Positions 399 through 52,225 of a stretch of DNA of 64,000 nt are shown piece after piece. Where the stretch lies: the NCBI GenBank assembly GCA_964599405.1, contig CAZRED010000001.1, positions 218,323 through 282,322 of the forward strand. Direction: 5' to 3'. The position numbers and the translations under genes are program-made. How positions within the stretch are numbered: position 1 is the first letter of the stretch; the number at the start of each line of letters is the position of its first letter. The notes under the pieces were generated by a model. It worked only from the letters and a program-made list of their open reading frames with translations. It had not been told where the DNA came from and ran no database searches. This stretch comes from an uncultured Candidatus Saccharibacteria bacterium. GTDB lineage: Bacteria; Patescibacteriota; UBA1384; 2-12-FULL-50-11.

Positions 399-2909
399 AT
401 GCCAATACAAAAGACATTTGATCGTTCAAAGAACTTTCTAGCACAGTTAATTTTTGCTCTTACATCAAAGCTCTTACTTAGGAACCGAGGGCTTTGGGGT
501 CTTGATGCAAAACGGCCCAAGCACCAAATCCTGGCCTTAAAAGTTGTTGGTCAAATATACCGCTATGGGAAGGTATCCGGGGAATACTTGAGGATTTGGT
601 TATTCACACTTCACGAAAAGGTCTCATCGAACTGGGGAATCTTTAAAGAGCTTTTATATCACTCTAGATCCTTCATCGTATTCACTTTAATAGTAGTCAC
701 CGCATCTCTTCTGCCACTGAAAGGTTGGGGATTCTTACTAACTCGTGATGTAATAATAGGCAGCTCTACCGCCTATGCGGCAGGTGCAACCGCCTTACTT
801 GGAATAGTATTTGCCCTCTATGCAGTTGGCTTTCAGGTAACTACGGCAAAGTTTTCTTCAAAAGTTACTGATTATTTAAACAGGGAGAGGGTGGGTCAAT
901 TCTTTTTCGCCCTACTAACGCTGACGGTTATTTTTTCCCTTGCCACCTTATTACTTCAGCAGGGAACGGAGGAAAAATTAGTAACAGCCTTTATTGTTAA
1001 TTCGTTTTTCATGTTTATTAGCCTAGCCGGACTCCTAATATTCAAAGATGACTACATAACTAAGCTGAAACCAAGACAGACTTTTGAACGGTTATATAAT
1101 CAAATTCTGAAGTCCATCAGGCAGGTCAATAAGTACGACTACCCTGAATTTGACTCTTTCAAAATCACCCGAGCTCAAAACGCAAAGTCTGGCCGCGTTT
1201 ACCCCTCCATTCACAGTAGTTGGTCAATTGTAACGAACCTCCAGCGTCAGGTAAGGGATCGTCTTAGTATTATCGAAGTATTTTATGATGAACTCATCAA
1301 AGATGATAAGCCCCAGGACGCAATGTATGGACTGTCGCTACTGGGACAGCTGCTCGCCGAATACACATCTGTTAAACATTTTATCGATAAGGACTTTGGT
1401 TGGTGGTTTCCCGACAAGCAAGAAATTGTCAAGGCAGACAACAGCACAACATTCGCTATAAAAGCTAATTACGAATCTAAAGGAATTGGTAGACTTGCCG
1501 TAACAAAAAAAGATTTTGATTGGGTTGAAGATACAATTATTGCATTCTTCACTCGCGTTCAAAAAAACACTGACTTTCAGAGAAATCCCGAATTAGGCCA
1601 AGCCTTAATTTTTGCGTACGAAATAGCTATCTCTGGTGACTTTTCGAAAACTAATAAGGGTCTCGAAAAGCTATTACGAGGGTGTTTTGAAAATCAATAC
1701 AACGAAATTGCTAGTAAAATATTCGCGCTTTTCGTTGATTTAGGAGAGAAGGTTTGTTCTGTAGAAGGCTGCAGGACTAATTACCTAAACGCTATGGGAA
1801 CGATAAAAACTATTATCGCAGACGGATTTTCTTTAAGAAGCTTTCCTGGCCATTTAGAGCACTGGTCAACAGACTTAGAGGCAAGAATTAAAGAGGTTAT
1901 CTCAGGCGTACCCCTAGTTTCACAGCAACGCATGATCTCTTGGAAAATGCCAAAGGAATTCTTTTCCAGCCTAACGCTACTTCGAAAAAGACTGCAAACA
2001 GAGTACGAGATCGAGGGAAGGATGGTAAGTCCTCCGGTGTGGCTAACAAAGGATGTAATGGACGAGCTCCGTCGTACAGAAAACGAGATCTCCCTAAAAC
2101 ATCAAGACGAGGTAGTTGAGGCAGTGATACGATTATCAAAATTCTGTGGCTTCTATCGTGATCACTTCGTCATGGTTATCTTAGACATGTTTAACCAACT
2201 TATTTATGCTGACAACTGGGCTGCCATTGATCGCCTGCTGACAAAGTTCGACAAGCAACTACTTACAGTTTTGCTTTCTATCCCCAAAGATCAATTTATT
2301 GAGAATGGACTTAGAGAGCAAATTGAGTTCGGAGTGTTTAATTCATTAATAGTCCGCAAAAAGGCCCCCTTCTTGTTTTACCTTAAGCTATTTTACCTAT
2401 CTCAAATTCGGCTATCAGCAGACATCACAACTCGATCACTCACCGATCAATTCAAAACGTTAAGAAGACCAATTATGCTGGGGAGCCTAGCTTATCTCGT
2501 CTCAGAGTTGGATCAAGATTTTAGCTATGTAACCTCTTTCACGGTAATGATGGAGAAGCTTTATCCCCGTGTGAGCATTGCCGATTTATATTCGCAAGTA
2601 ATCGATTATAGGAGCTTATTAGGCAGTGTGGGTATATTTGAGGTCAGCACTGAAGAGTTCGCTCGCTACAGAATTTACTATCGACAAGTAATTAACCCTA
2701 TTACGGACTTACCTCGCAGGTCTGAAACGTCTGGCTCTATACCGTACGGATTTCACACTAGCGAAATGGCTGACCACCCCAGCAGCTTTGTACGAGATAT
2801 TTCTCAACACGAATTCTCTGACATGGAAGAATGCCACGAGGGTTATGTTGGTTGGTTAAAAAAACGTGAGTTAATGAAAAAATTTATAACCCTATTAAGT
2901 AATGCCTAG
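399..2909 (+). CDS. large hypothetical membrane-anchored protein (about 4 predicted TM helices in residues 90-210, about 600-aa soluble C-terminal region)
   Basis: 836-aa ORF. Hydrophobic segments FIVFTLIVVTASLLPL, STAYAAGATALLGIVFALYAVGF, FFFALLTLTVIFSLATLLL, AFIVNSFFMFISLAGLLIF. AT-rich codon usage distinct from core genes. No family recognised by eye. Confidence 0.6.
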   Translation: MPIQKTFDRSKNFLAQLIFALTSKLLLRNRGLWGLDAKRPKHQILALKVVGQIYRYGKVSGEYLRIWLFTLHEKVSSNWGIFKELLYHSRSFIVFTLIVVTASLLPLKGWGFLLTRDVIIGSSTAYAAGATALLGIVFALYAVGFQVTTAKFSSKVTDYLNRERVGQFFFALLTLTVIFSLATLLLQQGTEEKLVTAFIVNSFFMFISLAGLLIFKDDYITKLKPRQTFERLYNQILKSIRQVNKYDYPEFDSFKITRAQNAKSGRVYPSIHSSWSIVTNLQRQVRDRLSIIEVFYDELIKDDKPQDAMYGLSLLGQLLAEYTSVKHFIDKDFGWWFPDKQEIVKADNSTTFAIKANYESKGIGRLAVTKKDFDWVEDTIIAFFTRVQKNTDFQRNPELGQALIFAYEIAISGDFSKTNKGLEKLLRGCFENQYNEIASKIFALFVDLGEKVCSVEGCRTNYLNAMGTIKTIIADGFSLRSFPGHLEHWSTDLEARIKEVISGVPLVSQQRMISWKMPKEFFSSLTLLRKRLQTEYEIEGRMVSPPVWLTKDVMDELRRTENEISLKHQDEVVEAVIRLSKFCGFYRDHFVMVILDMFNQLIYADNWAAIDRLLTKFDKQLLTVLLSIPKDQFIENGLREQIEFGVFNSLIVRKKAPFLFYLKLFYLSQIRLSADITTRSLTDQFKTLRRPIMLGSLAYLVSELDQDFSYVTSFTVMMEKLYPRVSIADLYSQVIDYRSLLGSVGIFEVSTEEFARYRIYYRQVINPITDLPRRSETSGSIPYGFHTSEMADHPSSFVRDISQHEFSDMEECHEGYVGWLKKRELMKKFITLLSNA

Positions 2910-3990
2910 AAATAGCGAACAATTCCATGGCACGCATTTTAGCGACCCCTTTAAAGAACTGCTAAACGGACACGCCCAGCGAGTATCTACTACGAAAGAT
3001 GCTATGCAGCTATTTCATGAGGTGCATAATTATCGTCAAAACTTATTTCCTCCACGCTCCGTCCCTGTTTCAGGGAGGCCGGGAAGTTCTACCCTAGACA
3101 GCAACTTTTTTAGAGTTTCAGTAGCTGGAAGCCCCGCCTTAAGTAGGGATCTGAACGGTCATTTTACTGACACTAGAGGGTACCCAGCACATGGGGTGTC
3201 ATATGATGGAGCTCACGACCTATCTGAGTTTTTTGAAAACTCTTTATACCACCTATTAATCGACGGCATTGCTACCTATGTGATCGACTGGGAGCGAATA
3301 AAAGTCGCTAATCGTTATTATACGATTCCCGTGGGCCTTCGCTATATAAATCCCTCAACCATAACTATCCCGAAAAACGGAGTTGTTAAACAAAAGTTCA
3401 GCTGGATTGCCAAAGAGGTAAATAACCATTTTGAGTATCAAGATTCTCGCTTCTCCATAAAAGATTTAGTTATTTTCAAGCACCCTATTTATCCATTTTC
3501 TCCAGTAGGAAGGTCTCTTCGCTTATTAAAACAACTCAACCAGTGGAGTATTTTTTCGTTGCAGCAAGGGCAGGCAAATGTTGAGCCCGAGAATCATTCT
3601 ATCGAGCTAGAAAGAACTCGCTACAAACTAGCCGAACCTTATCGCAATAGGGAAGCAATAGCTCGCGCTAAAGTACGAAGGATCTTCAATCAAATAATAA
3701 GCGATACGGGGGTTGAGGCAACCCCTTATTACGAAGTGCTTGCATTCGCTCAATACAAAATGCGATTAAACGAATTCCGAGACTATTTTATGAAACAATT
3801 TTCCGAACAAATACTCAAACAGATTCAAGAAAGGAACGGGTTAAAGAATCCCCCGCAGATTGAGTACCGAGGGTTTGCAAAGAATGACGACATACTTTCT
3901 TCTCTTAAGGAATTTGAGGAAAGAAAAGTTAACGTTGAGGAGTTTCTGAAGAAAGTTAAGGATGATTTCGACCGAGATCTTTACCAATAG
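2902..3990 (+). CDS. hypothetical protein, translationally coupled to upstream gene
   Basis: 362-aa ORF whose start ATGCCTAG overlaps the upstream stop by 8 nt. No TM segments and no recognisable motif. Confidence 0.55.
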   Translation: MPRNSEQFHGTHFSDPFKELLNGHAQRVSTTKDAMQLFHEVHNYRQNLFPPRSVPVSGRPGSSTLDSNFFRVSVAGSPALSRDLNGHFTDTRGYPAHGVSYDGAHDLSEFFENSLYHLLIDGIATYVIDWERIKVANRYYTIPVGLRYINPSTITIPKNGVVKQKFSWIAKEVNNHFEYQDSRFSIKDLVIFKHPIYPFSPVGRSLRLLKQLNQWSIFSLQQGQANVEPENHSIELERTRYKLAEPYRNREAIARAKVRRIFNQIISDTGVEATPYYEVLAFAQYKMRLNEFRDYFMKQFSEQILKQIQERNGLKNPPQIEYRGFAKNDDILSSLKEFEERKVNVEEFLKKVKDDFDRDLYQ

Positions 3991-4005
3991 AAAGGACTTC
4001 AGTAA

Positions 4006-5172
4006 GTGAGACACCGAAAAGATCGTGAGTACTACGAGAATTTCTACGACAAGCTAACCGTTCATTTTGCTCGGAACGATATGGATTCCTTTTTCAGGCT
4101 CCGCGACGAGCTGAAAAAGAAGCTGCCGAAAAAAGAGTTTGAAGCACAAAGCACGCTGTTCTGGCTCGATAAGCTTTGCGACATGCTGGTTATGTGGCCA
4201 TGTGGTGAGCGCTGGGAAAAACGGGGCAGAGAGATCGACAGCATGATGCTAGCCGACGGAAATAAAGACCGCCAACTGGAAAACGCCCGGCTTCGACAGG
4301 AACCTGTTTGCAAACACTGCGGCAAGATTGGTTTACGTATCACCAGTAAGTATTTGATGCATCGAAACGGCTACTCACAAGACGTGCCAGAAGAAGTTTT
4401 GTTCATGCTCGACTGCCCAGCTTGCGAAAAACGAAGCAGTTACTGGGAAAGCGGCGAGTCATTTGAGAGACAGTCGACCCTCTGTCCAAAATGCCAAAGC
4501 GAGATGAAAGAACGCGACAGTCGCAAAGGCAAGATAATCACTACAACCTACACCTGCTCCAAATGCAAACATTCGTATAAAACGGCGCTCGATCTTCGTT
4601 CAAAGCCAGAAGAACCGGATCCGGATTTCGAGAAGCATAAAGCGATTTTCTGTTTTGATAATAAAACCGGTTTGGAGTATTTGCAGCGGCGCAACAACTG
4701 GAAAGCGTTTCAAGAGATGATGGATAGGGAAAAAGAGAAGGAGCAAAACGAGGCGCTGTACGGCTTAGTCGCGAAGATCAAGCGATTAAAAATTGCCGAA
4801 CTGATTGAGCTAATGGAAAAAGAGCTCAAGAAAGTCGAGTTTATTGAGGTTCGCTTTGAGAAGCCGGAGATTGGCAAAGACGTCATCGTTTCGTTTAGCT
4901 GCTTAGACGGAGATTCCAAACGCAGCGCTTATGACAGCGAAAAAATCCTAAAACGAACCGTTAAGAAAACATTACACCCAACCAACTGGCGACTGATGAC
5001 CGAAGGTGTCAGTTACCGTCTTGGCTACTTAACCGGCCGAGTCCGAGCCTACGAAAACGAAGAAGATTTGGTAAGGCTGATCGAAAAAGATCAGCCAGAG
5101 CTCAAGCGGGAGAAAACGGCGAATGATCCTGATCAACTTTTAGACAAAGACGGAAACATTATTACTTTGTAA
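4006..5172 (+). CDS. hypothetical zinc-ribbon protein (four CxxC pairs)
   Basis: 388-aa ORF with CKHCGK...CPACEK and CPKCQS...CSKCKH, i.e. two predicted zinc ribbons, and a charged coiled-coil-like C-terminal half. Its 3' end overlaps the convergent DGR RT gene by 11 nt. Confidence 0.6.
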   Translation: MRHRKDREYYENFYDKLTVHFARNDMDSFFRLRDELKKKLPKKEFEAQSTLFWLDKLCDMLVMWPCGERWEKRGREIDSMMLADGNKDRQLENARLRQEPVCKHCGKIGLRITSKYLMHRNGYSQDVPEEVLFMLDCPACEKRSSYWESGESFERQSTLCPKCQSEMKERDSRKGKIITTTYTCSKCKHSYKTALDLRSKPEEPDPDFEKHKAIFCFDNKTGLEYLQRRNNWKAFQEMMDREKEKEQNEALYGLVAKIKRLKIAELIELMEKELKKVEFIEVRFEKPEIGKDVIVSFSCLDGDSKRSAYDSEKILKRTVKKTLHPTNWRLMTEGVSYRLGYLTGRVRAYENEEDLVRLIEKDQPELKREKTANDPDQLLDKDGNIITL

Positions 5173-6184
5173 GCGAGGCGGTGATCCGAGACTGAATTTT
5201 CTTTTTGAGCTTGTGGGTATCGGCGTGCTGTAAGACGCCGTGATACGACGCCAGCGACTGGCTAAGGTCGTATGTGGTGATCGACTTATCTTTGTATTCA
5301 CTTAGCCGCTGGTCAATCTTCTTGATGACTCGTTGTTTCGTTTTAGTTCGCAACTGCTTGCGGTACGGCAAGATAACGTAGCCTAAAAAGTCAGCGCCCT
5401 GCCGATATTTTCTGATCGATACTTTGTTTGGGTGTAACTCGAGCGATAGCTCCTTGGTTAAAAATGCCCTAACCGGCTCCAAGAGATTTATTAAATAGTC
5501 TTCACTCTCGGCGATAACGACAAAGTCGTCGGTGTAGCGAGCGTAATATTTTACGCCCAAAGTTTGTTTCACAAATTGATCAAACTCGTTCATGTATATG
5601 TTAGCAAAGAGCTGGCTGGTTAAGTTACCGATCGGCATACCGTCCGGAAAACTCCCGATGATTCGCTCCAGAAGCCAGAGGGCGTCCTCGTCTTTAATCC
5701 GTTTAGCGAAAGTTCGAATGATTAGCTCGTGGTCAACACTTCGAAAGAACTTTTTGATGTCACATTTGAGAACAAAACAGGGTCTGGTGTAATTATGACT
5801 AACCTGTCGGATCATTTTATCGACCGCCAAAACTCCTCGGTGAGTACCTTTGCCGACTCGGCAGGAGAATGACGTTGAAATAAACCCGGATTCGAAAATT
5901 GGATTGAGGATATTAAATAGGGCTTGGTGGACGACTCGATCACGCACCTCGGCCTTACTGATAAGCCGCTGTTTCGGGTCTTGGATGTAAAAGGTGTGAT
6001 ATTTGCCGTGCTTATACCGACGGCTTTTTAAGTCTCGGTGAAGCTGAAAAAGGTTTGGTTCGAGCAACCACTCAAACTTCTGAACATCTTTACGGCTCCG
6101 CTTACCTTTACGGAATTTTTCCCACGCCAAAAAGAGGTTTTCGACCGAAATGATTGCTTCGAACAGATTTTCGTATATTTTCAT
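5162..6184 (-). CDS. diversity-generating retroelement (DGR) reverse transcriptase
   Basis: 340 aa. N-terminus MKIYENLFEAIISVENLFLAWEKFRKGKR is typical of DGR RTs. Motif IGNLTSQ (the DGR-specific I/LGxxxSQ replacing group-II QG). Catalytic YTDD box (ARYTDDFVV). RDRVVHQAL motif. Confidence 0.9.
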   Translation of the reverse strand: MKIYENLFEAIISVENLFLAWEKFRKGKRSRKDVQKFEWLLEPNLFQLHRDLKSRRYKHGKYHTFYIQDPKQRLISKAEVRDRVVHQALFNILNPIFESGFISTSFSCRVGKGTHRGVLAVDKMIRQVSHNYTRPCFVLKCDIKKFFRSVDHELIIRTFAKRIKDEDALWLLERIIGSFPDGMPIGNLTSQLFANIYMNEFDQFVKQTLGVKYYARYTDDFVVIAESEDYLINLLEPVRAFLTKELSLELHPNKVSIRKYRQGADFLGYVILPYRKQLRTKTKQRVIKKIDQRLSEYKDKSITTYDLSQSLASYHGVLQHADTHKLKKKIQSRITASLTK

Positions 6185-6658
6185 ATGATGGAGACACTTG
6201 GTTTACCGATCTTTCAAAAGTCGTACGATCTTTATAAATCCTTCTACGGCTGTCGTGACCACGTCGCCAAACAAGACCGGCATACCGTTTGGCAGCGCTG
6301 CGAAAACCTAGTTCTCGATCTACTCCAGTCGATTATTCAGGCTAGCCAGCAAGATAAGGCGGATAAGCTGATAACACTCGAGAAAGCGAGCGTCCAGCTC
6401 AACATGCTTCGCATTTTATTACGGCTCACTAAAGACCTGAAAGTCATCGATCCCAAGAAATACCTAATGCTCGAGGAGCAAATCGACGAGGTTGGTCGAA
6501 TGTTGGGCGGTTGGCTCAGATCGACTAAGATCCCCCCCCCCCCGACTATTTGGGTTCGGACGCGCGTTAGTATGCTGTCTAAACTAAGATTGAGAGATAG
6601 TGCCGAGAGGCCGACAACCCCAAGTTGGAGTTGCGGTTACCATCCGAGTTCCTGTTGA
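6185..6658 (+). CDS. avd: DGR accessory variability determinant (Avd); true C-terminus probably near 6531-6590, the ORF reads through a C12 tract into the TR
   Basis: MMETLGLP... The C-terminal helix ...LEEQIDEVGRMLGGWLRS closely mirrors the Bordetella phage BPP-1 bAvd ...IAEVGRILGSWIAR, with four-helix-bundle family spacing. The start ATG at 6185 abuts the RT start codon (complement of 6182-6184). The part of the listed ORF before 6185 lies inside the RT gene and is discounted. Confidence 0.75.
   Translation: MMETLGLPIFQKSYDLYKSFYGCRDHVAKQDRHTVWQRCENLVLDLLQSIIQASQQDKADKLITLEKASVQLNMLRILLRLTKDLKVIDPKKYLMLEEQIDEVGRMLGGWLRSTKIPPPPTIWVRTRVSMLSKLRLRDSAERPTTPSWSCGYHPSSC
6532..6543. repeat. C12 homopolymer (G12 on the minus strand) at the avd 3' end, 59 bp from the TR
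   Basis: Twelve consecutive C read directly from the sequence. A tract of plus or minus 1 would end the Avd frame at about 6571 or 6590 instead of 6658. Confidence 0.9.
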
Positions 6659-6716
6659 CGTTGAACCCATTGGCATTGAAGTTGCCAACGTTGACGCGGT
6701 TGCCATTCGAATCGAT
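6603..6716 (-). repeat. DGR template repeat (TR), sense on the minus strand
   Basis: 114-bp near-identical copy of 7154..7267. All 17 mismatches are T in this copy on the plus strand (A on the minus strand) versus A/C/G in the other copy. It is AAC-codon rich on the minus strand and has a GC-rich 3' end (GGGGTTGTCGGCCTCTCGG, IMH-like). Confidence 0.9.
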
Positions 6717-6994
6717 ATTTGCCCATTTTCTTCTGGTTTCACCGAAAGTTGAGCCTTACCGTCGGATTCTATCTTGAACCCTGCGGCTAAAGAATTATCG
6801 AATCGACCTATTTACTCTTCTTTCTGAATTTTATTTGGGAGCAGCGTAGAAGCATCTCCACCAAAAATGAGCAAGAACTTTCTCTCAAATCTTTCTCGCA
6901 CGCTGCCGCAACCGGTGGCTGCTGACATTCTGGCGAACTGAAGAATGAGTGCCCCGCGAGACCCAACCATGGCCGGATCTACACTAGCAAGACG

Positions 6995-7010
6995 CCTGCA
7001 TTATACCTGT
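6995..7010 (-). promoter_or_regulatory. candidate promoter -10 (CAGGTATAAT on the minus strand) positioned to drive a TR-containing transcript
   Basis: The minus strand reads CCTAACAGGTATAATGC. It shares CAGGTATAAT with the target-gene promoter element at 8110-8119. The -35 is weak. Confidence 0.3.
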
Positions 7011-7074
7011 TAGGATGTCAGCCGTACAGGGTTAAACAACGAAAAATGTGGCGAGCGCTTCGCGCTCTTAGTAT

Positions 7075-7102
7075 AAAAAAGCCCCGGCGGAAAACCGCCG
7101 GG
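7075..7102 (-). terminator. rho-independent terminator downstream of the DGR target gene
   Basis: Stem CCCGGCGG / loop AAAA / CCGCCGGG, followed on the minus strand by a T6 tract. Confidence 0.7.
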
Positions 7103-7144
7103 AGTTCAAGGGGGACAAAAGGCTCAAGAGCCAATGTCCAAAGT

Positions 7145-8002
7145 TCAGAAGTTCCGAGAGGCCGACAACCCCAAGTAGGAGTAGCGGAAACCATCCGAGT
7201 ACCCGCGGACGCCGAACCCATAGGCATCGAAGCAGCCAACGTAGACGCGGTTGCCATCCGAAACGATGTCGGAGCAGCGAACGTAGACGTTCTCGAACAG
7301 GCGCTCTCCCGTATTCAGGAAGTGTCCCATGACCGTGTACGTCATAACGCAAGCTGTCGGAGTCGTCTCGTCCTTCAGGAGGGCTTGCTGCTCGTCCCAA
7401 GACTTGCTGGTCGAGTTATCGACCGGCTGCTTGCGGATGAGGTACCAGCGGACTTCGACTTTGGTCTTCTTGGCGAAGGCTTGAGTCTCATACCACCCGC
7501 CGGTCGGCGTGTAGAAGAGCTTGCCCTTCTTGGCTCGGCCAGCCTTGGTCCGAACTTGCAGGAGCGTCATCGGATAGCCGGCAACGAGCACGTGTGTGTC
7601 TTTGCAAGCTTCGAGAACTTCCTTAGTGAACGGAACCGTAGCGAGAGCGTCGAGCTGATCCTGGGTCCACTTAGCACCGAGGTGCTTCGCGGCTTCTTCG
7701 AGACCGAAGAAGTTCGTTCCCATGATCGTCTTGGCTTCGTTCTGGCTGTCGGTCAGCTCGATGGCGGCAACAGGCGGAGCCTGCTGGCCGGCCTTCTTCA
7801 AGGCCTTACGAGCAATCCGATCCATCTCGTTAGCGAGCTGGTCATAGCCCAGAAAGGCTTGAAAGCCCGGGCCGTCCAAACCGTTACGGTGGACAAAATC
7901 GCGCATGACCTGGTCGCACTTGTGAAACTGGTCGTCAGTGACTGGAGTAGATGGAGGGGTCTGTGTTTGTGGCATCAGGCGTCTCCTCGTGTTTATGCCC
8001 AC
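7145..8002 (-). CDS. DGR target protein with C-terminal CLec/FGE-like variable region; no signal peptide evident
   Basis: 285-aa ORF containing the VR. The C-terminal GFRYSY/ VRGYSDG pattern resembles C-type-lectin-fold DGR targets. The opposite-strand 354-aa ORF (7046..8110) is R/L/A/G-rich antisense. Confidence 0.8.
   Translation of the reverse strand: MGINTRRRLMPQTQTPPSTPVTDDQFHKCDQVMRDFVHRNGLDGPGFQAFLGYDQLANEMDRIARKALKKAGQQAPPVAAIELTDSQNEAKTIMGTNFFGLEEAAKHLGAKWTQDQLDALATVPFTKEVLEACKDTHVLVAGYPMTLLQVRTKAGRAKKGKLFYTPTGGWYETQAFAKKTKVEVRWYLIRKQPVDNSTSKSWDEQQALLKDETTPTACVMTYTVMGHFLNTGERLFENVYVRCSDIVSDGNRVYVGCFDAYGFGVRGYSDGFRYSYLGLSASRNF
7154..7267 (-). repeat. DGR variable repeat (VR) in the 3' end of the target gene
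   Basis: Counterpart of the TR. It encodes the last ~40 aa of the target protein (...VYVRCSDIVSDGNRVYVGCFDAYGFGVRGYSDGFRYSYLGLSASR). Differences from the TR occur exclusively at TR adenines. Confidence 0.9.
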
Positions 8003-8094
8003 GGGGCAGATTGTCTCCTCTCGGTTGAGATGAGCTGCTCAGAAACTGCTTATTTCCAAGAAGCTCATCTCAAACTTCTTACTGTTAATGTTCG

Positions 8095-8130
8095 TCGGAA
8101 GTATACCTGATTATACCTGAAAAGTCAAGG
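8095..8130 (-). promoter_or_regulatory. sigma70-like promoter of the DGR target gene (-35 TTGACT, 17-bp spacer, -10 TATACT) carrying the shared CCCTTGACTTTTCAGGT motif
   Basis: The minus strand reads CCCTTGACTTTTCAGGTATAATCAGGTATACT. The same extended motif occurs at 35675-35712 and 36293-36330. Confidence 0.55.
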
Positions 8131-43243: not shown

Positions 43244-44818
43244 ATGAGGGGAGGGTTTTTGAAAAGAGCAGGACGGGTTGTACTATTTTCGATGGCAACC
43301 CTTGTAACATTTTCGGGCGTATTCGGGCTGGCAAGCCCCGCCATGGCCATTGGTGAGCCAAAGTTTTCATACACAAGTAAGACCCTCAATCTCAGGCGAA
43401 TCAGTGAAGCTAAAGTGACGGCATCTGCTCGGTTCCAGGTCTCAGAAGATGGCGCGCCAGACGAGTTGATAGGGTACGTAACTGTTAATGTAGCCTACTC
43501 ATTCCTCTCAAAAGACGGGGTTTTTGAACGTTGGAAAGTAGCCGACGTAACTTTCACCAATCCGAAATTCGACGCTTACGGTAGCAAGCAGAATAAAAGC
43601 AAGGCAGAGGGGTCGCTGCTTGAACTCTATAATGATGACCAACAACTTGTTGCTAGGTTCGATTTCCGTACATCAGTACCTACCTTTCGTTACGTAGTTA
43701 TCAACCAGGAGCCGGCCCAGGTTGGTGGCAACCCAGTCAACCACCCAGGTGTTTTTGTTGGGGTTGCCGATGGTAACGAATTCATACCTACTACCGGCCA
43801 GGGCTCGTTGAGCGAAAAGCACCCGGTGCAGGCCTTTGCCTATGCCAGCACTAGTTCGGGTAGCATCGCTTCCATCGGCTCAATTGCCGGGGAGACATAC
43901 GTACCATACGCCAGCGTCTTCAACTACAGCCTAAAGACTGATGGTTCGGCAGGAAGCGCCGTGAGCAAGGAGCAAGCACAGGGATGGTTCTCTGGCCAAA
44001 ACCTTGGGACACTCTCTATTGAACGCTTTGAGGAAGCCGGCAACCCACCGTACATAGACCTCCCTGGCAGTACTGCTCTGCAGCGGCCGGCGCTGCGTTT
44101 TGTTTTAGCCCATATCGGCGGCGAGGGGTCCGGCTGGGTGCTTTGGGGTAATGTTGATTGGCTAATATTCGAAGCCTACTTACTGGAGGGTGGTAATGCC
44201 ACAGAAAAAGTCCCGAATATTTTCCTCGTAGCCAACGACGAGTTTCGCAAGGACTTCATTTATGACGCCGACATAACAGGAGTGAAAAAAGGAAAATACG
44301 ACCCGATCCCGGCAAATTTCGACATTAATCGCAGCCAACACGAAAAGTTACTAACCTACATCTATAACCACGTACCAAAAGACCCGGCAAAAGAAAATTG
44401 TGGCGAGGAAGCAGTGTATAGTATCGGCCCGAATAGCACCGACGATTATCGTTACGTTAACTTAGTGCCGGGCTGGGCAGATAAGTTGGCCGGGGAGTTA
44501 AACGGTAACTGCATCACAGTCCCCGCAGCAGGTTGGGCGCAGTTTTGGGGAGTAACCGTCAATAGCGCCCCCTTCACCGCCACTGCCGACGGCGGCTGTA
44601 GTGCCACTTGGATTGTTACCGGTGGCAACATCTTGGTTGGCCCTCCCGCTATCCTCAATGAGCTAGGGATTAACCCAAACGAATTAAATATGATATCGCG
44701 TGCCGCCATTTGTATATACGACTGGGTCGTTAACCCAATCGTCGACTGGGCAACAAGTGTGATTCTGTACGCGGCCGGGATTGCCCGCAGCCCGTTTAAC
44801 TTCCTCTACCATGCGTAG
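43244..44818 (+). CDS. secreted hypothetical protein, first gene of the T4SS-like operon
   Basis: Signal peptide MRGGFLKRAGRVVLFSMATLVTFSGVFGLASPAMA. Hydrophobic C-terminus. Stop overlaps the next start (ATGCGTAG). Confidence 0.55.
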   Translation: MRGGFLKRAGRVVLFSMATLVTFSGVFGLASPAMAIGEPKFSYTSKTLNLRRISEAKVTASARFQVSEDGAPDELIGYVTVNVAYSFLSKDGVFERWKVADVTFTNPKFDAYGSKQNKSKAEGSLLELYNDDQQLVARFDFRTSVPTFRYVVINQEPAQVGGNPVNHPGVFVGVADGNEFIPTTGQGSLSEKHPVQAFAYASTSSGSIASIGSIAGETYVPYASVFNYSLKTDGSAGSAVSKEQAQGWFSGQNLGTLSIERFEEAGNPPYIDLPGSTALQRPALRFVLAHIGGEGSGWVLWGNVDWLIFEAYLLEGGNATEKVPNIFLVANDEFRKDFIYDADITGVKKGKYDPIPANFDINRSQHEKLLTYIYNHVPKDPAKENCGEEAVYSIGPNSTDDYRYVNLVPGWADKLAGELNGNCITVPAAGWAQFWGVTVNSAPFTATADGGCSATWIVTGGNILVGPPAILNELGINPNELNMISRAAICIYDWVVNPIVDWATSVILYAAGIARSPFNFLYHA

Positions 44819-46970
44819 GTTGGCCTTACTGTTCCTGCTCGGCGGTAGCTTACTATTTTTCACGCCGCACTTAGACCAGGCTTCGAGCCAGTTGGGAGTT
44901 GGTTTTGTTACCTCGGCCCAAGCCCAGGACGGCGAAAAGTGCGACGACAGTTTCACGGGTACTGGGCGGAAGTGCACACTGGCCGAGCGGATTGTTGACC
45001 CCAGCGGGTTTGTCTACCCGTCTTGGGTAATTGTCAGGGGGATAATTAATATCCTCCTTATTCTGGGCCTGCTGGCAATCTCTTTCTCCAACATCACCCG
45101 AATCAATATCGACACCTACACCATCAAGAAGGCTCTGCCCAACCTATTGATTGGGATCGTCTTAGCAAACGCCAGCTTACTGATTATTCGTTATATAGCG
45201 GATATTTCCACGGTGGCAATTTACTTTTTTGTTGAGCGTTCCCCCGGCTTTGATATCGAGGGTCAAACCCTCCTGTTTCAAGATTTTATCCGCGTTGTGC
45301 TCGGAAATGTCGGAATAGGTTCATTGGTACAGATAATTAACTTAACTGGTGGCGCTGCAGCGTTTTCGGCGCCGTTAATCGTGTTGGTTTTGGGGTTAAT
45401 CCTTCTTATCGGAATGTTATGGCTGGCGTTAGTGATGTTTATTCGACTGGCCGCTATTTACCTGCTTACCATCCTCGCCCCGTTGGCGTTTGTTGCCTAC
45501 GGCATACCAGGTCAAGAAAAGTACTTTACCCAATGGTGGCAGCTTTTCACAAAATGGATGTTTATATTGCCGGCCATGACTGCCGTCTTTTGGCTGATAC
45601 TTCAAATATCCAGGCAGGGTGGGGACTCTATATTAAAGATTGCGATAATGTATATGCTCTTCTTCTTCGCGCTGGCTATTCCGTCCAAGTTTGGCGGATC
45701 TGTTATCGATAAAGCTACCACCGCTTTTAAAAAGTACAGCGGCACCGATGCCGCCGTGAAAGCATCAAAAGAATACGCAGCCCAAAAAGGTCAACAGATC
45801 GGTTATCGCATGCCGGGCGTTGCTAGATTCCAGGGTTGGAGAGAGCAGCAAAAAGCCAATGCGGAGAAAGATATTGATCAGCTGAAGCGGCGCGGCAAGG
45901 CAAAAATTCTTGCCGGCAAGACTGGGCTTAACAAGCAGAAACTAGAAGTGTTAGAGAAAGAATTGGCTAGTCAGGAATTAGAAGTGGACGCTAATCAAAG
46001 GATCAAGGCTGGGGAGCTCAGAGACCGATTTGGATTTGGGACGACTTTGGACGTCCGGGAGATTAGGGCCGACTACGCCAAGCAGAAGGCGGAAGGCCAC
46101 AGGGATGCTGAAGCGGCTAAGAAAAAACTAGAATACTTAGATGCCGGCGAAAACAAAGAAGAACTGCAAAGGGTGTTCGACAAGGTGAATGAATCTACCG
46201 TCCTTACGGGAGAAGTGGGGAAAAACGAGGGCATCGCTAAGGGTAACTTGGCTCGAGAAGAGCTGATTCTTTCTAAGCACGTTGACGACTATAAGAAGGC
46301 TAAAGAAATTTACGATCGGCTTGATAAGCAGCTGCAAAGTGGGCAGGCGCTAAGCCAAGACGACCTCGATCTTATGAATAAAAACGGCCAGGTAATGACC
46401 AAGGTTAAGGCAAACTACAACCTGATTATCGGTGGCAATATGGCCGGGCACGGGTTCTTCTCTGGCAAACACATAGAGCAGGCAGCAAATGCAGTCGGCA
46501 TAGAAAAAACTATCATTTCGGCCAAAAAAGCTCAGTCTGCCAAAGCCGTGGACGCGGGGGTTAAGGCAACGATTGAAGAGGCGCTGAAAAATGAAACCCT
46601 TGAGGAGGCACTCGCTAGTTACGAAGAAATTAAAGACAAAGACAAGCTTGTTAAAGGCGATACGCTTGGAGTGGAGATGAAGGATCAGCACAAGTTTGTG
46701 TCCCACACACAGAAGCTTGTGGCTTGGGCTGGTAAACAGAATGACCACAGGAGGGATGGCGCACTTACTGAGTTGGGGGGTATGTTAATTGACGGCAAGG
46801 GAACAGTTAACCTTAATGGAGTTGATTACATAGACAAGGACGTGTTGGCTGACGCCATAGAAGCTGCAAAGCCCGAGGATAAGAAGAGAATATTTAGAGA
46901 TATTGCAAAAAATAGCCAATTCTTAGTCGGGTCTGGCGGTTATCAAGCCGGCCACTACGAGGATAAATAA
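44811..46970 (+). CDS. VirB6/TrbL-like polytopic membrane protein with long C-terminal coiled-coil region
   Basis: Signal sequence, about 6 TM helices (residues about 80-330), then about 380 aa K/E/A-rich predicted coiled coil. Confidence 0.55.
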   Translation: MRRLALLFLLGGSLLFFTPHLDQASSQLGVGFVTSAQAQDGEKCDDSFTGTGRKCTLAERIVDPSGFVYPSWVIVRGIINILLILGLLAISFSNITRINIDTYTIKKALPNLLIGIVLANASLLIIRYIADISTVAIYFFVERSPGFDIEGQTLLFQDFIRVVLGNVGIGSLVQIINLTGGAAAFSAPLIVLVLGLILLIGMLWLALVMFIRLAAIYLLTILAPLAFVAYGIPGQEKYFTQWWQLFTKWMFILPAMTAVFWLILQISRQGGDSILKIAIMYMLFFFALAIPSKFGGSVIDKATTAFKKYSGTDAAVKASKEYAAQKGQQIGYRMPGVARFQGWREQQKANAEKDIDQLKRRGKAKILAGKTGLNKQKLEVLEKELASQELEVDANQRIKAGELRDRFGFGTTLDVREIRADYAKQKAEGHRDAEAAKKKLEYLDAGENKEELQRVFDKVNESTVLTGEVGKNEGIAKGNLAREELILSKHVDDYKKAKEIYDRLDKQLQSGQALSQDDLDLMNKNGQVMTKVKANYNLIIGGNMAGHGFFSGKHIEQAANAVGIEKTIISAKKAQSAKAVDAGVKATIEEALKNETLEEALASYEEIKDKDKLVKGDTLGVEMKDQHKFVSHTQKLVAWAGKQNDHRRDGALTELGGMLIDGKGTVNLNGVDYIDKDVLADAIEAAKPEDKKRIFRDIAKNSQFLVGSGGYQAGHYEDK

Positions 46971-46972
46971 TA

Positions 46973-47761
46973 ATGGACACGGATATCTTACTTACCGACC
47001 AAGAAGAAGGTCTCCTGGATAGCCTGGTCGCGCAGCTCTATCAAAGTGGCGCGGACATCAATGGGGCAATTAACCAGATCGATGGATTGGGAGGTAAGAA
47101 AACTGACTTATTCTCCTCGGCTATTTATAGCGTCTCCTTTCATCAGCGGGAACGCGAAGACTATGTGATCGCCTCGATTTTCGGCAAAAAAATTACGAGC
47201 TCTAATAGCAGAAAAGTAATTATGCTAGCTCTGGCAAATAACCCCACCTCTCCAGATGAAGCTCTGCGGGCACTCAATATCCCCGAGCTACCGGCAACTG
47301 CTATCGGCACAGTACAAGACCAAGAAGTTCTTAACCAGCTCGCTATCTACAAAACCGTCGAAGAGAACCTCTACAAACTGCAAACCCAATTAATCACCCG
47401 ATACAACGTGATGCCGGTGTTCCCGCTGTTGAAAAACATCCCGGCAGAAAAGTTACAAGAGATTTCAGCCGGAATCGAAAACTACATCAATTACTGCCTG
47501 GGGCTGGAAGAAAAAGTGCTATTTTCCGACCTGCCCTTACCGCCAGCCCTCGAGAAACTATTGATGGAGGTGTCGCCTAGCCTGCCAGCCTTCAAAGCCG
47601 AGTCAACACTGGAAAGAATTAACTACATGAAAGAACTTTTGGTTATCTGCAGCGTGCTAGTCGAAAATTCCGCTCGGCTTGGCCAATCACCAGACTGGGA
47701 GATAGCTGAAATCGCCGGTAAGGTGTTAGCCCTAACAAATACCCCAATCAGCTACCGTTAG
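46973..47761 (+). CDS. hypothetical cytoplasmic protein within the T4SS-like operon
   Basis: 262 aa, no TM, no motif. Confidence 0.45.
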   Translation: MDTDILLTDQEEGLLDSLVAQLYQSGADINGAINQIDGLGGKKTDLFSSAIYSVSFHQREREDYVIASIFGKKITSSNSRKVIMLALANNPTSPDEALRALNIPELPATAIGTVQDQEVLNQLAIYKTVEENLYKLQTQLITRYNVMPVFPLLKNIPAEKLQEISAGIENYINYCLGLEEKVLFSDLPLPPALEKLLMEVSPSLPAFKAESTLERINYMKELLVICSVLVENSARLGQSPDWEIAEIAGKVLALTNTPISYR

Positions 47762-47842
47762 TTCAATTGGCTGGCTAACCCGATTAAGTTACACTATTCA
47801 CTATGGAGGGGTATGCAGTTGAAAACGGTACTTTGGGGATAG

Positions 47843-48262
47843 ATGCAATTTAAAGTTCCCCAAAACATCGATATGGAGGATAAGATTATTGGGCCGCTGA
47901 CGCTGACCCAGTTCTTTTACTTGCTCTTTGGCGGGGTGATTCTCTATATTCTCTTCAACAAACTAGTACTGTCTGGTTTGTCGTTACTGTTTTGGGTGTT
48001 GGCAATTCCTATCGGGACATTCAGTTTCGCGATGGCCTTTGTGAAAATCCAAGACCGGCCGTTCCCCTCGTTCTTTTTCGCCATGTTGAAATACGCCTCG
48101 ACGCCTCGAGCTCGGGTCTGGCAGCACTACACTCGCCCCAACCAGGTCAAGCCGAAGGTTGTTGCACCGAAAGCGGCGACCCCGAAAAAATCCTTCGACA
48201 CCGTCCGGGTGAGTGAATTAGCCCAGGTGATGGATCAAGATTTGCCGAGGGCTCAAGAGTGA
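47843..48262 (+). CDS. PrgI/VirB3-like small two-TM protein
   Basis: MQFKVPQNIDMEDKIIGPLTLTQFFYLL N-terminal pattern of the PrgI family, followed by two TM helices. Immediately precedes the VirB4-like gene. Confidence 0.5.
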   Translation: MQFKVPQNIDMEDKIIGPLTLTQFFYLLFGGVILYILFNKLVLSGLSLLFWVLAIPIGTFSFAMAFVKIQDRPFPSFFFAMLKYASTPRARVWQHYTRPNQVKPKVVAPKAATPKKSFDTVRVSELAQVMDQDLPRAQE

Positions 48263-50928
48263 TGGCCAAGAAAGCCCAAAACAAACCGGTTGCTACCCAG
48301 AAGTTCCTGCAGATCGAGCGAATTCGCGACGGCATCGTTATCTTGAAAGACGGCCGGCTGCGCAAGATTGTCCGGTGTATGCCGTTAAACTTTGATTTGA
48401 AAAGTGAAAAAGAAAAAGAAGTGGCGATTTATCAGTACCAAAACTTTTTGAATTCGCTGAAGTTTCCCCTGCAAATCGTCATCCAATCGCGACGGGTGGA
48501 CTTGTCGGCCTACGTGGAAAAAGTTGAGCAGGCTTCGGCCAACGAAATTAACGAACTACTCCAAAAACAGTCGAAAGACTACCTGGAATTCATCAAAATT
48601 CTAAGCGAACAGGTTAATATCATGGAGAAGTCTTTCTATATGATTGTCGGCCATACGGTGAAAGGAGCGGTAGAGCGCCAGACCTTCGTGGACAAAATCC
48701 TGGGGAAAAAGCGAATTGGTCTGACCGATGTGACCGACAAAGACTTTGCTGAATACAAAACAGTCTTGAGTGAACGGACCCGCACCGTCGCTGGCCGACT
48801 GAATTCGCTGGGCATCCAAACCCATGAACTAGACACCCGGGAAATTATTGAGCTGTTTTACAACTCCTATAACCCCGAGGAATCCTTCACTCAACACTTA
48901 GCCGACCCCGAACAAGTAACGGCTCCTGTGGTACAAAAAGGGCAGGATTTGCTGAAAAAAGCCGGGATTTCAGAGCTGTTACCGCCAGCGACTAACCCGC
49001 CAGCGGCAGCTGCGCCGGCTGGCGCTGGCGAGGTTAAGATTGACCAAGCGGCGGCGGCCGATATTGGCAACGAAGCCAAAACAATGCGCAAAACCACCGT
49101 TTCCCAAATTTTCAACCGGCTCGGCATTAAAGCCACCGACGCCGAAAACACCGAAGCGGTTCTGCGCCAGGGTATCGCCAGTGTGCTGGACGTGATTGCC
49201 CCGGGAGGCATGAATATCACCCCCAACTACGTGCAGCTAGGCAGCTACTATCTCCGCACTCTTTTTGTTTACACCTACCCGCGCTATCTCCAGGCCAACT
49301 GGCTCTCGCCGATTATCAATTATGACACCACGCTCGATTTAGGAATGTTTATCTACCCAATCGAAACCAATATTTTGGTCGGGCAGTTGCGCCGGAAAAC
49401 TACCCAATTACAGTCCAGCTTACAGATTGAGTCCGAAAAAGGGCTGGTTCGAAACCCGGAGCTGGAGACAGCCGTTGGCGATATCGAAGAGCTACGTGAC
49501 ACTCTTCAAAAAGGGGAAACCCGCCTGTTCCAGATGGGGCTCTACTTCACCATATACGCTAGTACGATCGACGAGCTTAATAAACTTTCCAAACAGTTCG
49601 AGTCAATCCTTGGCGGGCAGTTAATCTACACCAAGCAAGCCCTCTTACAAATGGAGCAAGGCTTCAACGCCACTATGCCGCTGCTCGACGACCAGATGGA
49701 TATCGTCCGCAATCTCGACACCGCTTCGCTCTCCACCACCTTCCCCTTCACCTCGGCCGAACTATCGCACCACGACGGTGTGCTCTACGGCATCAACTTG
49801 CACAATAGCTCACTGGTATTGTTTGACCGCTTCCGCATGGAGAACGCCAATCAGGTGGTTTTTGCCAAATCTGGCGCCGGTAAATCTTACGCCGTTAAGC
49901 TAGAAGTAATCCGTTCCTTGATGCTCGGCTCCGAAGTAATTGTGATTGACCCAGAAAACGAGTATCGCACCCTCGCTCAAGCCGTTGGCGGCACCTACGT
50001 TGACCTGTCGCTGAACTCCACCCAGAAAATTAACCCGTTTGATCTACCGAAATACCGCGAAGACTCTGGCGAAACCGGTGAACAGTTGCTGCGCAGCACT
50101 GTCGTGGCCGTTCACGGTCTGGTGAGCCTGATGGCTGGCAGTCTTAACCCCGAGGAAGACAACTTGCTCGACAAGGCCCTTTACGAAACCTACGCCCTGC
50201 GTGACATCACCACCGACCCAGCCAGCCACGCCAACACCCCGCCAACCATGAGCGATTTGGTAACAGTGCTCCAAAACATGAGCAGCACGGAGTCGCTGGT
50301 TAATCGCCTCGCCAAATACACCGACGGTAGTTTTGCCGGTTTGTTTAACTCCCAGACTAACATTGATATGAACAATAAAGTCACCGTTTTCTCGATCCGC
50401 GACATGGAAGACGAGCTCCGACCAATCGGCATGTACATGGCCTTGAACTACATCTGGGCACGGGTGAAAAGTGATTTGCGCAAACGAATGATGGTAATCG
50501 ACGAGGGCTGGGTGCTGATGCGCTACGAGGACTCGGCCAAATTTGTGAACGCCATCGCCAAACGAGCCCGCAAATACTACTTGGGTCTGACAGTGATTAG
50601 TCAAGACGTTGAAGATTTCTTGGGCTCCAGTTACGGCCGATCGGTAGTTAGCAACTCTTCAACCCAACTATTACTTGGCCAGTCGACCACGGCTATCGAT
50701 AAAATTGCCGAAGTTTTCAAACTGACCGATGGCGAGAAGTTTTTCTTAACCGAGGCGGAAGTCGGCCAGGGCTTGTTCTTTGCCGGTAATAACCGGGCAG
50801 CCATTCAAATTGTTTCGTCTTATACCGAAGATCAAATTATTACCACCGATCCGAAACAGCTGCTGGAGCTCTACGGCATTGGTGGGCAGTCCACTCCGCC
50901 CGAAGTGAATACGCCGCCAAATGGCTGA
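48259..50928 (+). CDS. VirB4-like T4SS ATPase (PrgJ/TrsE/CagE family)
   Basis: 889 aa. Walker A FAKSGAGKSYAVK in the C-terminal half, Walker B MMVIDEGW. N-terminal VirB4-type domain. Confidence 0.85.
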   Translation: MMAKKAQNKPVATQKFLQIERIRDGIVILKDGRLRKIVRCMPLNFDLKSEKEKEVAIYQYQNFLNSLKFPLQIVIQSRRVDLSAYVEKVEQASANEINELLQKQSKDYLEFIKILSEQVNIMEKSFYMIVGHTVKGAVERQTFVDKILGKKRIGLTDVTDKDFAEYKTVLSERTRTVAGRLNSLGIQTHELDTREIIELFYNSYNPEESFTQHLADPEQVTAPVVQKGQDLLKKAGISELLPPATNPPAAAAPAGAGEVKIDQAAAADIGNEAKTMRKTTVSQIFNRLGIKATDAENTEAVLRQGIASVLDVIAPGGMNITPNYVQLGSYYLRTLFVYTYPRYLQANWLSPIINYDTTLDLGMFIYPIETNILVGQLRRKTTQLQSSLQIESEKGLVRNPELETAVGDIEELRDTLQKGETRLFQMGLYFTIYASTIDELNKLSKQFESILGGQLIYTKQALLQMEQGFNATMPLLDDQMDIVRNLDTASLSTTFPFTSAELSHHDGVLYGINLHNSSLVLFDRFRMENANQVVFAKSGAGKSYAVKLEVIRSLMLGSEVIVIDPENEYRTLAQAVGGTYVDLSLNSTQKINPFDLPKYREDSGETGEQLLRSTVVAVHGLVSLMAGSLNPEEDNLLDKALYETYALRDITTDPASHANTPPTMSDLVTVLQNMSSTESLVNRLAKYTDGSFAGLFNSQTNIDMNNKVTVFSIRDMEDELRPIGMYMALNYIWARVKSDLRKRMMVIDEGWVLMRYEDSAKFVNAIAKRARKYYLGLTVISQDVEDFLGSSYGRSVVSNSSTQLLLGQSTTAIDKIAEVFKLTDGEKFFLTEAEVGQGLFFAGNNRAAIQIVSSYTEDQIITTDPKQLLELYGIGGQSTPPEVNTPPNG

Positions 50929-52225
50929 GCCGGCGTTGCAACTCCCCGACGACGATATTGAACCGGTCGAACCAAGCGACCCTGATGTTTTATACATGCC
51001 CGGCGCCGAACCGCCGCCGGAGTCTGTTGCTGACGATGGCCAAACCATTGATGCCCGCCCACAAATTAACGAACGTCTTGAGCAGCAGAAGCGCGCTAAA
51101 GCCCAAAGCGAAGTAGAAAAAGTAAAATCCGGCGAACAGAAACTGAAAAAAGCGACCAGCACACCGACAGCGGGCAAGTCCAAGTTCGGAGAGGCGGCCG
51201 CCGGTGCGGCACTGTCTGGCGGCGGAGACAAAGAAGACCGAAAAGAAAGAGCCAAAGAAGCCTTGAAAGAAGAGGCTAAACAACAAGCCAAGCAGTACGC
51301 GAAACAAATCGCTCGTCAGGCGGGTGCGACGATAAAGAAAGCGGCTGTTGAGGCTATCGCCGCCACCTCAGAGTTCTGGGTTCCTGCGCTGGTTATCATT
51401 CTAATTATCATTGCAATTGTCGCCATTATCTTTGTCCTCTTCTCCTTTGACGGTGACGGCGGCAAAGGCCCCGCCCAGTACCCGGAAACAGCCCTGCAGC
51501 GCCAGCACTCCAACTTTTTACTGGCAATTTCAGGCGATAAAATTGCGAGCGATGTGGCAGTCAAAGAAGTGATCGACAGCGAGCTCGAGCGCTACGATCG
51601 GATTAAGACCAACGCCGACCGTTTCAACCCCGACCTGTCAACTACCATTGCCGCCAAGAAAATTGAACTGGACGGCAAGCTGATGGGGCTGCTAATTGAA
51701 AAAAGTGTCGATCGGCGCAAAGTCTTGCGCGACCAATTCCAAGGGGAGATGCGGGCGTTTGAAGCCACGCTGCCGTTTGGCAGCTGGATTGCGGCGTTGG
51801 CCGAAGAGCGGGTAGGCCAGCCCAATCTGCAATTCTGTTCGATTACTGGCGCCACCGCTAAGGTAGCCTGCGCATCGTTTACGTCCACTATTATGTACCT
51901 GGCCGGCGTGCCCAATGCCATCGTTGGCAATACGACCGAAGTTTGGAACAACAGCGCTCTAAAAGTAGTGATCGATCGCAGCCCCGCCCCCACGGCAGGG
52001 CAGTACGACCCTGCCAAGCTTCAGCCCGGCGATATTATCTGGTGGGGCAATGGCAGCTGCAGCAGCGTCAAGTACTCTGGTAAGCTCTTTGACCACGTTG
52101 GTTTTTATGTTGGTAACGGCATGGCGATAGACACCAGCTCCAGCCGCGAAACGGTCGAAAAGCGCTCGGCGCCGCGTCGTGATAGCTGCCGGCTATTTAA
52201 CGGGGCTAAAAGGTACGGAAGATGA
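50921..52225 (+). CDS. membrane-anchored NlpC/P60 (CHAP-like) peptidoglycan hydrolase
   Basis: Acidic N-terminus, K/E-rich segment, TM (VPALVIILIIIAIVAIIFVLF). C-terminal FCSITG (Cys) and HVGFYVGNGMAID (His box) motifs. Confidence 0.55.
   Translation: MAEPALQLPDDDIEPVEPSDPDVLYMPGAEPPPESVADDGQTIDARPQINERLEQQKRAKAQSEVEKVKSGEQKLKKATSTPTAGKSKFGEAAAGAALSGGGDKEDRKERAKEALKEEAKQQAKQYAKQIARQAGATIKKAAVEAIAATSEFWVPALVIILIIIAIVAIIFVLFSFDGDGGKGPAQYPETALQRQHSNFLLAISGDKIASDVAVKEVIDSELERYDRIKTNADRFNPDLSTTIAAKKIELDGKLMGLLIEKSVDRRKVLRDQFQGEMRAFEATLPFGSWIAALAEERVGQPNLQFCSITGATAKVACASFTSTIMYLAGVPNAIVGNTTEVWNNSALKVVIDRSPAPTAGQYDPAKLQPGDIIWWGNGSCSSVKYSGKLFDHVGFYVGNGMAIDTSSSRETVEKRSAPRRDSCRLFNGAKRYGR

Follow-up and report, generated by a model that had tools for sequence, protein, structure and literature searches.

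The window analyzed here (64,000 nucleotides of contig CAZRED010000001.1, from an uncultured Candidatus Saccharibacteria bacterium; all positions below are those of the window) carries a locus that is probably a complete and active diversity-generating retroelement (DGR) of the kind that is standard in bacteria of the candidate phyla radiation (CPR). It is very likely a chromosomal CPR/Patescibacteria element of architecture B3, with, in this order, a target gene containing the variable repeat (VR), a terminator, a DGR RNA containing the template repeat (TR), an inverted avd gene and a reverse transcriptase (RT) gene. A complete DGR had already been called in an initial annotation made from the sequence alone, and every defining part was found to be present and intact, with an adenine-only pattern of repeat differences far beyond chance. 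The TR is embedded in a conserved, strongly covarying structured RNA with a large domain 5' of the TR. DGRs have been known since 2017 as abundant in CPR bacteria, and as a DGR the locus is one more intact example that leaves the general picture unchanged; the RNA is the more interesting result, with its domain 5' of the TR, its predicted pairing across the TR and no Rfam family at threshold.

Repeats, proteins and architecture of the element

A repeat finder returned a single long direct repeat here, with its copies at 6599-6716 and 7150-7267 (offset 551). Base-by-base comparison of the TR (6603-6716, minus strand) with the VR (7154-7267, minus strand) revealed 17 mismatches in 114 bp, all of them at TR adenines, the plus strand reading T in the TR (A on the minus strand) and A, C or G in the VR, which confirms the 114-bp pair with 17 of 17 adenine-specific substitutions described initially. 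With 28 A in the 114 nt of the TR minus strand, the probability of 17/17 falling at A is 4e-11 (binomial) or 3e-13 (hypergeometric). The earliest TR/VR difference that does not involve an adenine is at position 6602, just beyond the repeat, where the divergence of the flanks starts. No second VR, remote target or further repeat copy was found within the window. The VR covers 38 codons and ends two codons short of the end of the target; it lies inside the target C-terminus, as had been annotated, but is separated from the TGA stop by 6 nt (AACTTC) and not by 7. An alignment of homologues showed the target to be hypervariable precisely at the codons of the TR-adenine differences of the VR. The TR is rich in AAC/AAT, a template typical of DGRs, and when read in the VR frame gives I D S N G N R V N V G N F N A N G F N V N R N S D G N R N S N L G L S A S R; it is located between the RNA domain and avd and is non-coding in this context, the small open reading frames (ORFs) that cross it showing no conservation as genes.

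Direct reading of the VR end (7145-7172, minus strand) gave a sequence resembling an initiation of mutagenic homing (IMH) site, consisting of the GC-rich GGGGTTGTCGGCCTCTCGG, common to the TR, and then the VR-specific AACTTCTGA; the two repeats part ways immediately after CGG. The GC-rich IMH-like 3' end that had been noted on both repeats holds up as a common 19-mer with divergent flanks, AACTTCTGA in the VR and CACTATCTC in the TR. An IMH at the VR end that is distinct from the IMH* at the TR end, together with a GC-rich hairpin downstream of the VR, is a combination expected of a DGR and is present here, with a putative role in homing. The hairpin, likewise recognized initially, was recovered by a terminator scan at 7082-7103 (minus strand), with 9 bp, a 4-nt loop and a subsequent U run. 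Relatives keep it at the same place; its changes are compensatory inside the close clade, while across the wider family the sequence of the stem is conserved. About 60 nt 3' of the target stop (the 7075-7145 minus-strand region of the window; ~35 loci) are conserved and comprise repeated CTTGA motifs, a small hairpin and the terminator, the stem sequence of which (GAGCCUCCG/CGGAGGCUC) is conserved in most loci; this is unusual for a simple terminator and suggests a sequence-specific role. In the clade of the window the terminator stem has a different sequence, still GC-rich and with a 4-nt loop. A hairpin downstream of the VR promotes homing in the DGR of Bordetella phage BPP-1, as summarised in PMC5758913, and by analogy the hairpin at 7082-7103 is a candidate DGR target-site hairpin as well as a terminator of the target gene, fitting both roles equally.

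The RT (340 aa; 5162-6184, minus strand) matched Pfam RVT_1 at 4e-23, and the motifs reported for it were located at 5632-5612 (IGNLTSQ, residues 185-191) and 5536-5525 (YTDD, residues 217-220). Its best match in the PDB, over the full length, was 8ub7_A (328 aa, E 2.8e-52; entries 8ub7-8ube), which is probably the Bordetella phage bRT. Group II intron and retron RTs in the PDB matched at E 3e-20 or weaker, about 30 orders of magnitude worse. Full-length homologues were found in 119 phage records, among them Bordetella and crAss-like phages and the archaeal virus ANMV-1. The avd gene (6185-6658, plus strand) encodes the Avd-like protein of the initial annotation, which at 6185 to ~6544 matches Pfam bAvd (9e-21) and the DGR-Avd equivalog NF033474 of NCBIfam (86.8 bits, cut-off 80); the Avd domain occupies residues 7-113. 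Most DGRs, although not all, have an Avd. The gene lies on the strand opposite to RT, TR and target, an orientation on which the initial annotation was silent, and its start codon stands back to back with that of the RT (6185 and 6184).

The order in the window is thus TR 6716-6603 (minus), avd 6185-6544 (plus) and RT 6184-5162 (minus), with no other accessory gene, which is architecture B3, 'TR-(avd)-RT', reported for 90% of the CPR DGRs of one study and hardly ever outside them (Wu et al. 2018, PMC5758913); since the inverted avd belongs to the published B3, the architecture is not new. The window is chromosomal and encodes PolA, FtsK, PNPase, PPDK and peptide deformylase. The target family has 461 detectable homologues, few of them with a source name and these mostly from Patescibacteria. 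A family profile gathered 79 genome loci, about 45 of which have target (+), TR, avd (-) and RT (+) with equal spacing, and in each of these ~45 loci the TR/VR pair is 114-122 nt long and has 12-23 differences specific to adenine, with 0-2 of other kinds. The B3 DGRs described from CPR bacteria (PMC5758913; 'DGR clade 2', PMC8144416) share the gene order, the inverted avd and the chromosomal location, and the relatives of the window locus are metagenome-assembled genomes of Patescibacteria; likewise shared are a target without recognisable transmembrane (TM) segment, signal or Pfam domain, a C-terminal VR and an AAC-rich TR. No essential difference from them was found, the traits peculiar to the clade of the window being a poly-C/G tract and a longer insertion in one RNA hairpin. 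Like the BPP-1 DGR (mtd-avd-TR-brt), the window locus has an RT with the motifs I/LGxxxSQ and YxDD and an Avd; in both, TR-to-VR transfer is specific to adenines, there is a GC-rich IMH-like end, and a GC hairpin with a loop of 4 nt follows the VR. In BPP-1, however, avd is not on the opposite strand, and the element is phage-borne with a tail-fibre target, whereas that of the window is chromosomal and its target is no tail fibre.

The target gene (7145-7975, minus strand) encodes 276 aa from an ATG at 7975, the start used by gene callers and homologues. The 285-aa target of the initial annotation corresponds to an ORF that does exist, from a GTG start (7145-8002, minus strand), but the ATG is the likelier start. 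No family match was obtained for the target in Pfam, NCBIfam or PDB-sequence profile searches, and in these it showed no sequence similarity to Mtd (1yu0), TvpA (2y3c) or TaqVP (5vf4), which have C-type lectin or formylglycine-generating enzyme (FGE)-sulfatase folds. A structure model agreed in part with the C-type lectin fold suggested initially, the C-terminal region being FGE/C-type-lectin-like, while the VR part was of low confidence and a Foldseek search of the model against the PDB gave no significant match. Neither a signal peptide nor a TM segment is visible in the target, in line with what had been annotated. The CPR 'clade 2' DGR targets are published as having neither, their true freedom from membranes being an open question (Roux et al. 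2021, PMC8144416), so that the lack of a signal peptide is not peculiar to this locus. The protein is probably not membrane-anchored, and a soluble-looking target with a putative lectin-like fold bears on the open question of what the targets of CPR DGRs bind.

Diversification among relatives of the element

The VR of the window was compared with those of its closest relatives, L002 and L003, whose targets are 75% and 86% identical to that of the window. It differs from them at 13 of 26 and 15 of 27 shared TR-adenine sites, respectively, and at none of the 76 and 81 shared non-adenine sites, bearing out in these relatives the expectation that VR variation is confined to TR-adenine positions. 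Where the TRs of the three loci differ from each other, each VR matches the non-adenine changes of its own TR. The adenine-confined divergence of the VRs and their tracking of their own TRs presuppose TR-to-VR transfer later than the split of the lineages.

Metagenome contigs were scanned for the invariant 3' end of the VR, yielding two contigs of a sister species with ~76% nucleotide identity to the window. These contigs, L084 (Ga0209542_10014450) and L085 (C687J35174_10004710), are 99.8% identical over 9,494 nt, and 17 of their 19 differences are found in the 103 nt of VR covered by both, 16 of them at TR adenines. The pair provides direct evidence, at the level of populations, that DGRs are active in the clade, and the population variation at TR adenines foreseen in the initial annotation was accordingly observed in this sister species for all the VR differences but one. 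The value of the window locus is as an entry point to this large, well-sampled family of more than 45 loci, in which activity is visible between near-identical metagenome contigs.

A structured RNA domain 5' of the template repeat

The interval between VR and TR measures 437 nt, and a stretch of ~200-280 nt within it comes close to the TR in its degree of conservation (37 loci). A TATAAT -10 box of the TR-containing RNA lies at 7000-7005 (minus strand), its T, A and final T (TAnnnT) being invariant in 36 loci (columns T12, A13 and T17 of alignment A2). Conserved RNA sequence begins ~7-10 nt after this box and runs to within at most 3 nt of the TR. From alignment A2 (36 loci) and its covariation in RNAalifold, a structured 5' domain of 276 nt was delimited at 6719-6994 (minus strand), with 59 base pairs in eight helices, 44 of the 59 showing compensatory double changes. 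In an independent count 97.0% of 2,082 pair cells were standard pairs, compared with 83.6% after column shuffling and ~45% with slid partners, and none of 500 shuffles reached the observed value on any measure. The minimum-energy fold of the window's own sequence agrees with the consensus helices. A sequence profile of the domain (nhmmer, E 1e-50) matched the window once, 49 of the 51 loci with RT or avd and 7 of the 32 loci without. The latter seven (L027, L034, L044, L073, L074, L080 and L081), with no RT or avd within 5 kb, retain parts of the RNA domain, in most cases from its 5' half, immediately behind the target gene, and are probably decayed DGR cassettes.

At the gathering threshold, Rfam searches of the window and 14 relatives returned only tRNAs and a LOOT RNA. 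At a relaxed threshold RT-16 (RF03019; gathering score 50) scored 23.9 bits over the 3' two-thirds of the domain (6721-6873), and 24.2 bits at the equivalent place in the distant locus L064, with the strings AUAAAAUaCAG and GGUGA common to both matches; no RT-16 match was found in L008, and a 60-kb Rfam search by E-value was too insensitive for this family. RT-16 is one of 19 orphan motifs near RT genes, with no function assigned (Weinberg et al. 2017, PMC5737381), and resembles the domain in place, strand, association with an RT gene and topology, a long closing stem around two hairpins; the RNA of the window has in addition a 5' part (helices 1-4) and a predicted long-range helix to the TR flank. 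The scores are below the 50 bits or more required for membership, and the common strings and topology suggest that the domain is at most a distant relative of RT-16. Among the 19 motifs only RT-10, the spacer between TR and brt of phage BPP-1, has been tied to a DGR (PMC5737381), and RT-10 (RF03022) gave no match up to E = 10 on either strand of 6100-7200. No description of the 5' domain was found in the searchable literature, coverage of which was incomplete, so that its novelty is uncertain; a published survey of DGR RNA elements covered only 40 nt upstream of the TR (bioRxiv 10.1101/2023.10.23.563531).

A long-range helix is predicted between a single-stranded segment of the 5' domain (strand a, AAGAUUUGAGAGAAAGU, 6877-6893, minus strand) and the 17 nt that adjoin the TR on its 3' side, in the TR-specific flank towards the IMH* (strand a', CACUAUCUCUCAAUCUU, 6586-6602, minus strand); for the window the duplex energy is -16.8 kcal/mol. 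Across 36 loci the cognate domain/flank duplexes averaged -13.1 kcal/mol against -11.3 for non-cognate ones, and none of 5,000 permutations reached the cognate mean, a test on which the helix rests and which GC content shared within genomes could inflate slightly. Compensatory pairs were seen in the helix (GGAUAGAG/CUCUAUCC, GGAUGGAG/CUCCAUCC, GACAGA/UCUGUC and UUGAGAGA/UCUCUCAA). RNAalifold on a mini-alignment did not recover it, the register shifting between subfamilies, and these shifts also account for the failure of a column-wise covariation count. Such a helix would enclose the TR and helices 5-8 in a loop, and has a parallel in the 'cPRT Stop' duplex of the BPP-1 ribonucleoprotein: there, sequences from either side of the TR pair, the TR is looped out, and cDNA synthesis depends on the duplex (bioRxiv 10.1101/2023.10.23.563531). 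The upstream strand would be ~160 nt from the TR in the window, whereas it is adjacent to the TR in BPP-1; similarly, the large structured RNA of the window lies 5' of the TR and the functional spacer RNA of BPP-1 (Rfam RT-10) 3' of it. Compensatory mutations did not bring back the cDNA in BPP-1.

Most family members also have, ~25-30 nt past the TR, a covarying GC-rich hairpin with an A run on one side and a U run on the other, immediately ahead of the avd stop on the opposite strand. It looks like a bidirectional terminator and could, by analogy, be an Avd-binding stem-loop of the type proposed for many DGRs (bioRxiv 10.1101/2023.10.23.563531). This hairpin would make the DGR RNA a discrete molecule of ~470 nt. 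The clade of the window is without it, so that transcription of its TR RNA may extend across antisense avd as far as the RT gene.

On these grounds a working model can be drawn for the element. A minus-strand RNA would be transcribed from the -10 box at 7000-7005, and RT and Avd would bind its structured 5' domain. Synthesis of cDNA would begin at the 3' end of the TR, beside the long-range helix, with misincorporation opposite adenines, and the cDNA would then replace the VR, guided by the common GC-rich end and by the VR-specific flank and hairpin, rewriting at least 17 codon positions of a presumed C-type-lectin-like binding surface. The RNA would end ~50 nt after the TR, at the hairpin and U run, in most of the family, and may read through antisense avd into the RT gene in the clade of the window, where a G run stands in place of the hairpin. 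More tentatively, and with rather less than even confidence, we propose that the DGR RNA of the family is a self-contained non-coding RNA of ~470 nt that carries a -10 box of its own and, in most of the family, a bidirectional terminator as well, whose 5' eight-helix scaffold serves protein binding and priming and whose TR is clamped by the long-range helix; it would be a permuted form of the Bordetella-phage DGR RNA, to our knowledge the only DGR RNA studied biochemically. If true, this would assign a function to a relative of the orphan RT-16, and would place the scaffold 5' of the TR here as against 3' (Sp, Rfam RT-10) in the Bordetella-phage RNA. The covarying template RNA provides a testable model of priming and cDNA delimitation in DGRs with an inverted avd.

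Poly-C tract, alternative explanations and neighboring genes

At the 3' end of avd there is a tract of 12 C (6532-6543, plus strand; poly-G on the TR strand). Its length on the avd strand is 12 C in the window and 11, 9 and 10 C in three close relatives, and in this clade it replaces the avd stop codon and the hairpin of the wider family; no such run was found in the sister species L084 or in the wider family. Past the tract the avd frame continues antisense into the TR, adding a tail of 37 aa. Simulated tract lengths of 9 to 13 gave Avd proteins of 156, 127, 133, 157 and 128 aa, with the Avd domain intact in all, so that the tract alters the tail only. The run differs by one base between L003 and L004, otherwise near-identical contigs from two runs, which may be either true slippage or an assembly artefact. 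A G run as a general feature of DGR RNAs was rejected, since it is confined to four close relatives, and its action as an on/off switch of Avd is unlikely, the domain being kept at every simulated length.

Besides the caveats on the long-range helix given above, several points weigh against an active DGR working as outlined. The sole other assembly of the strain (L001) is identical to the window, so that current activity in this particular genome is inferred. The clade lacks the avd stop and hairpin of the family, and the frame through the 12-C homopolymer adds the 37-aa tail antisense into the TR; this change could impair Avd, or could be an assembly error. The priming site, the ends of the RNA and the binding of RT and Avd to the 5' domain are all inferred.

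The identical VR of the second assembly and the poly-C12 tract, with the avd frame running 37 aa further into the TR, would be consistent with the DGR having recently been inactivated, possibly by the tract, and the repeat differences recording past activity in a strain that no longer diversifies; decay does occur in the family, 7 of the 32 RT-less target loci retaining RNA-domain fragments. Such a fossil is nevertheless unlikely, because the RT retains its whole length and its YTDD, the Avd domain (residues 7-113) is unaffected, no damage is seen in the RNA domain, the TR or the IMH-like ends, and the three other members of the G-run clade have intact cassettes with 16-19 adenine-only differences; moreover, non-adenine mismatches, which inactivation would let accumulate, are zero. 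It is next to inconceivable that the repeats are an ordinary duplication or a gene-conversion tract with a coincidental adenine bias, beside an RT from a retron, a group II intron or a defence system. The RT does give sub-threshold matches to the group II, Drt3a and retron models of NCBIfam, but these are far under their cut-offs, and the group II RTs fall 30 orders of magnitude short of its best PDB relative; the DGR-specific Avd adjoins the RT, and the binomial p of 4e-11 for the adenine pattern is accompanied by ~45 independent loci with the same pattern.

With regard to the 276-nt stretch, two 52-aa ORFs lie within it (for example 6812-6970, minus strand) and its conservation is near the level of the TR, features compatible with a small protein or a site acting at the DNA level in place of a structured RNA. 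We consider this very improbable, given the 97% of standard pair cells and the 44 doubly compensated pairs out of 59, unmatched by 500 shuffles and well above the ~45% of slid partners, the indels of 1 and 2 nt and variable hairpin insertions inside the ORFs, and the sub-threshold RNA-family matches at the same place in two distant loci.

As for the remaining features of the locus, a promoter-like site, TTGACT-17-TATACT (8100-8128, minus strand), lies upstream of the target gene, scored 10/12 in a consensus scan and is a match to the consensus only. The GC content of the target gene is 58%, against ~43% in its surroundings in the window, and over 82 loci the targets exceed their flanks by a mean of 13 points, whereas the RT genes show no excess. 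At third codon positions the GC content (GC3) is 69% in the targets (VR removed), 42% in the RTs and 46% in Avd, the bias being synonymous. Avoidance of adenine was rejected as the cause of this family-wide GC3 excess of the targets, A and T being equally depleted at third positions.

Downstream of the RT, the 2902-5172 region (plus strand) contains two ORFs of 362 and 388 aa with no family match, which are not conserved beside the DGR in relatives; the 388-aa ORF is rich in zinc-ribbon-like CxxC pairs and overlaps the 3' end of the RT gene convergently by 11 nt. These ORFs were rejected as a part of the element or as a prophage, on account of the lack of matches to phage or DGR families and of the different neighbors in relatives. 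The LOOT RNA (RF03000, 74-79 bits) was found ~500 nt upstream of the target match in L008 (4386-4507, minus strand) and L020 (4385-4517, minus strand), and not in the window. Farther away, a block of genes on the same strand (44781-57819, plus strand), with a TraG/TraC-like P-loop ATPase (48259-50928) and a 1,426-aa ORF without Pfam match (52222-56502), may represent a secretion or conjugation-type system.

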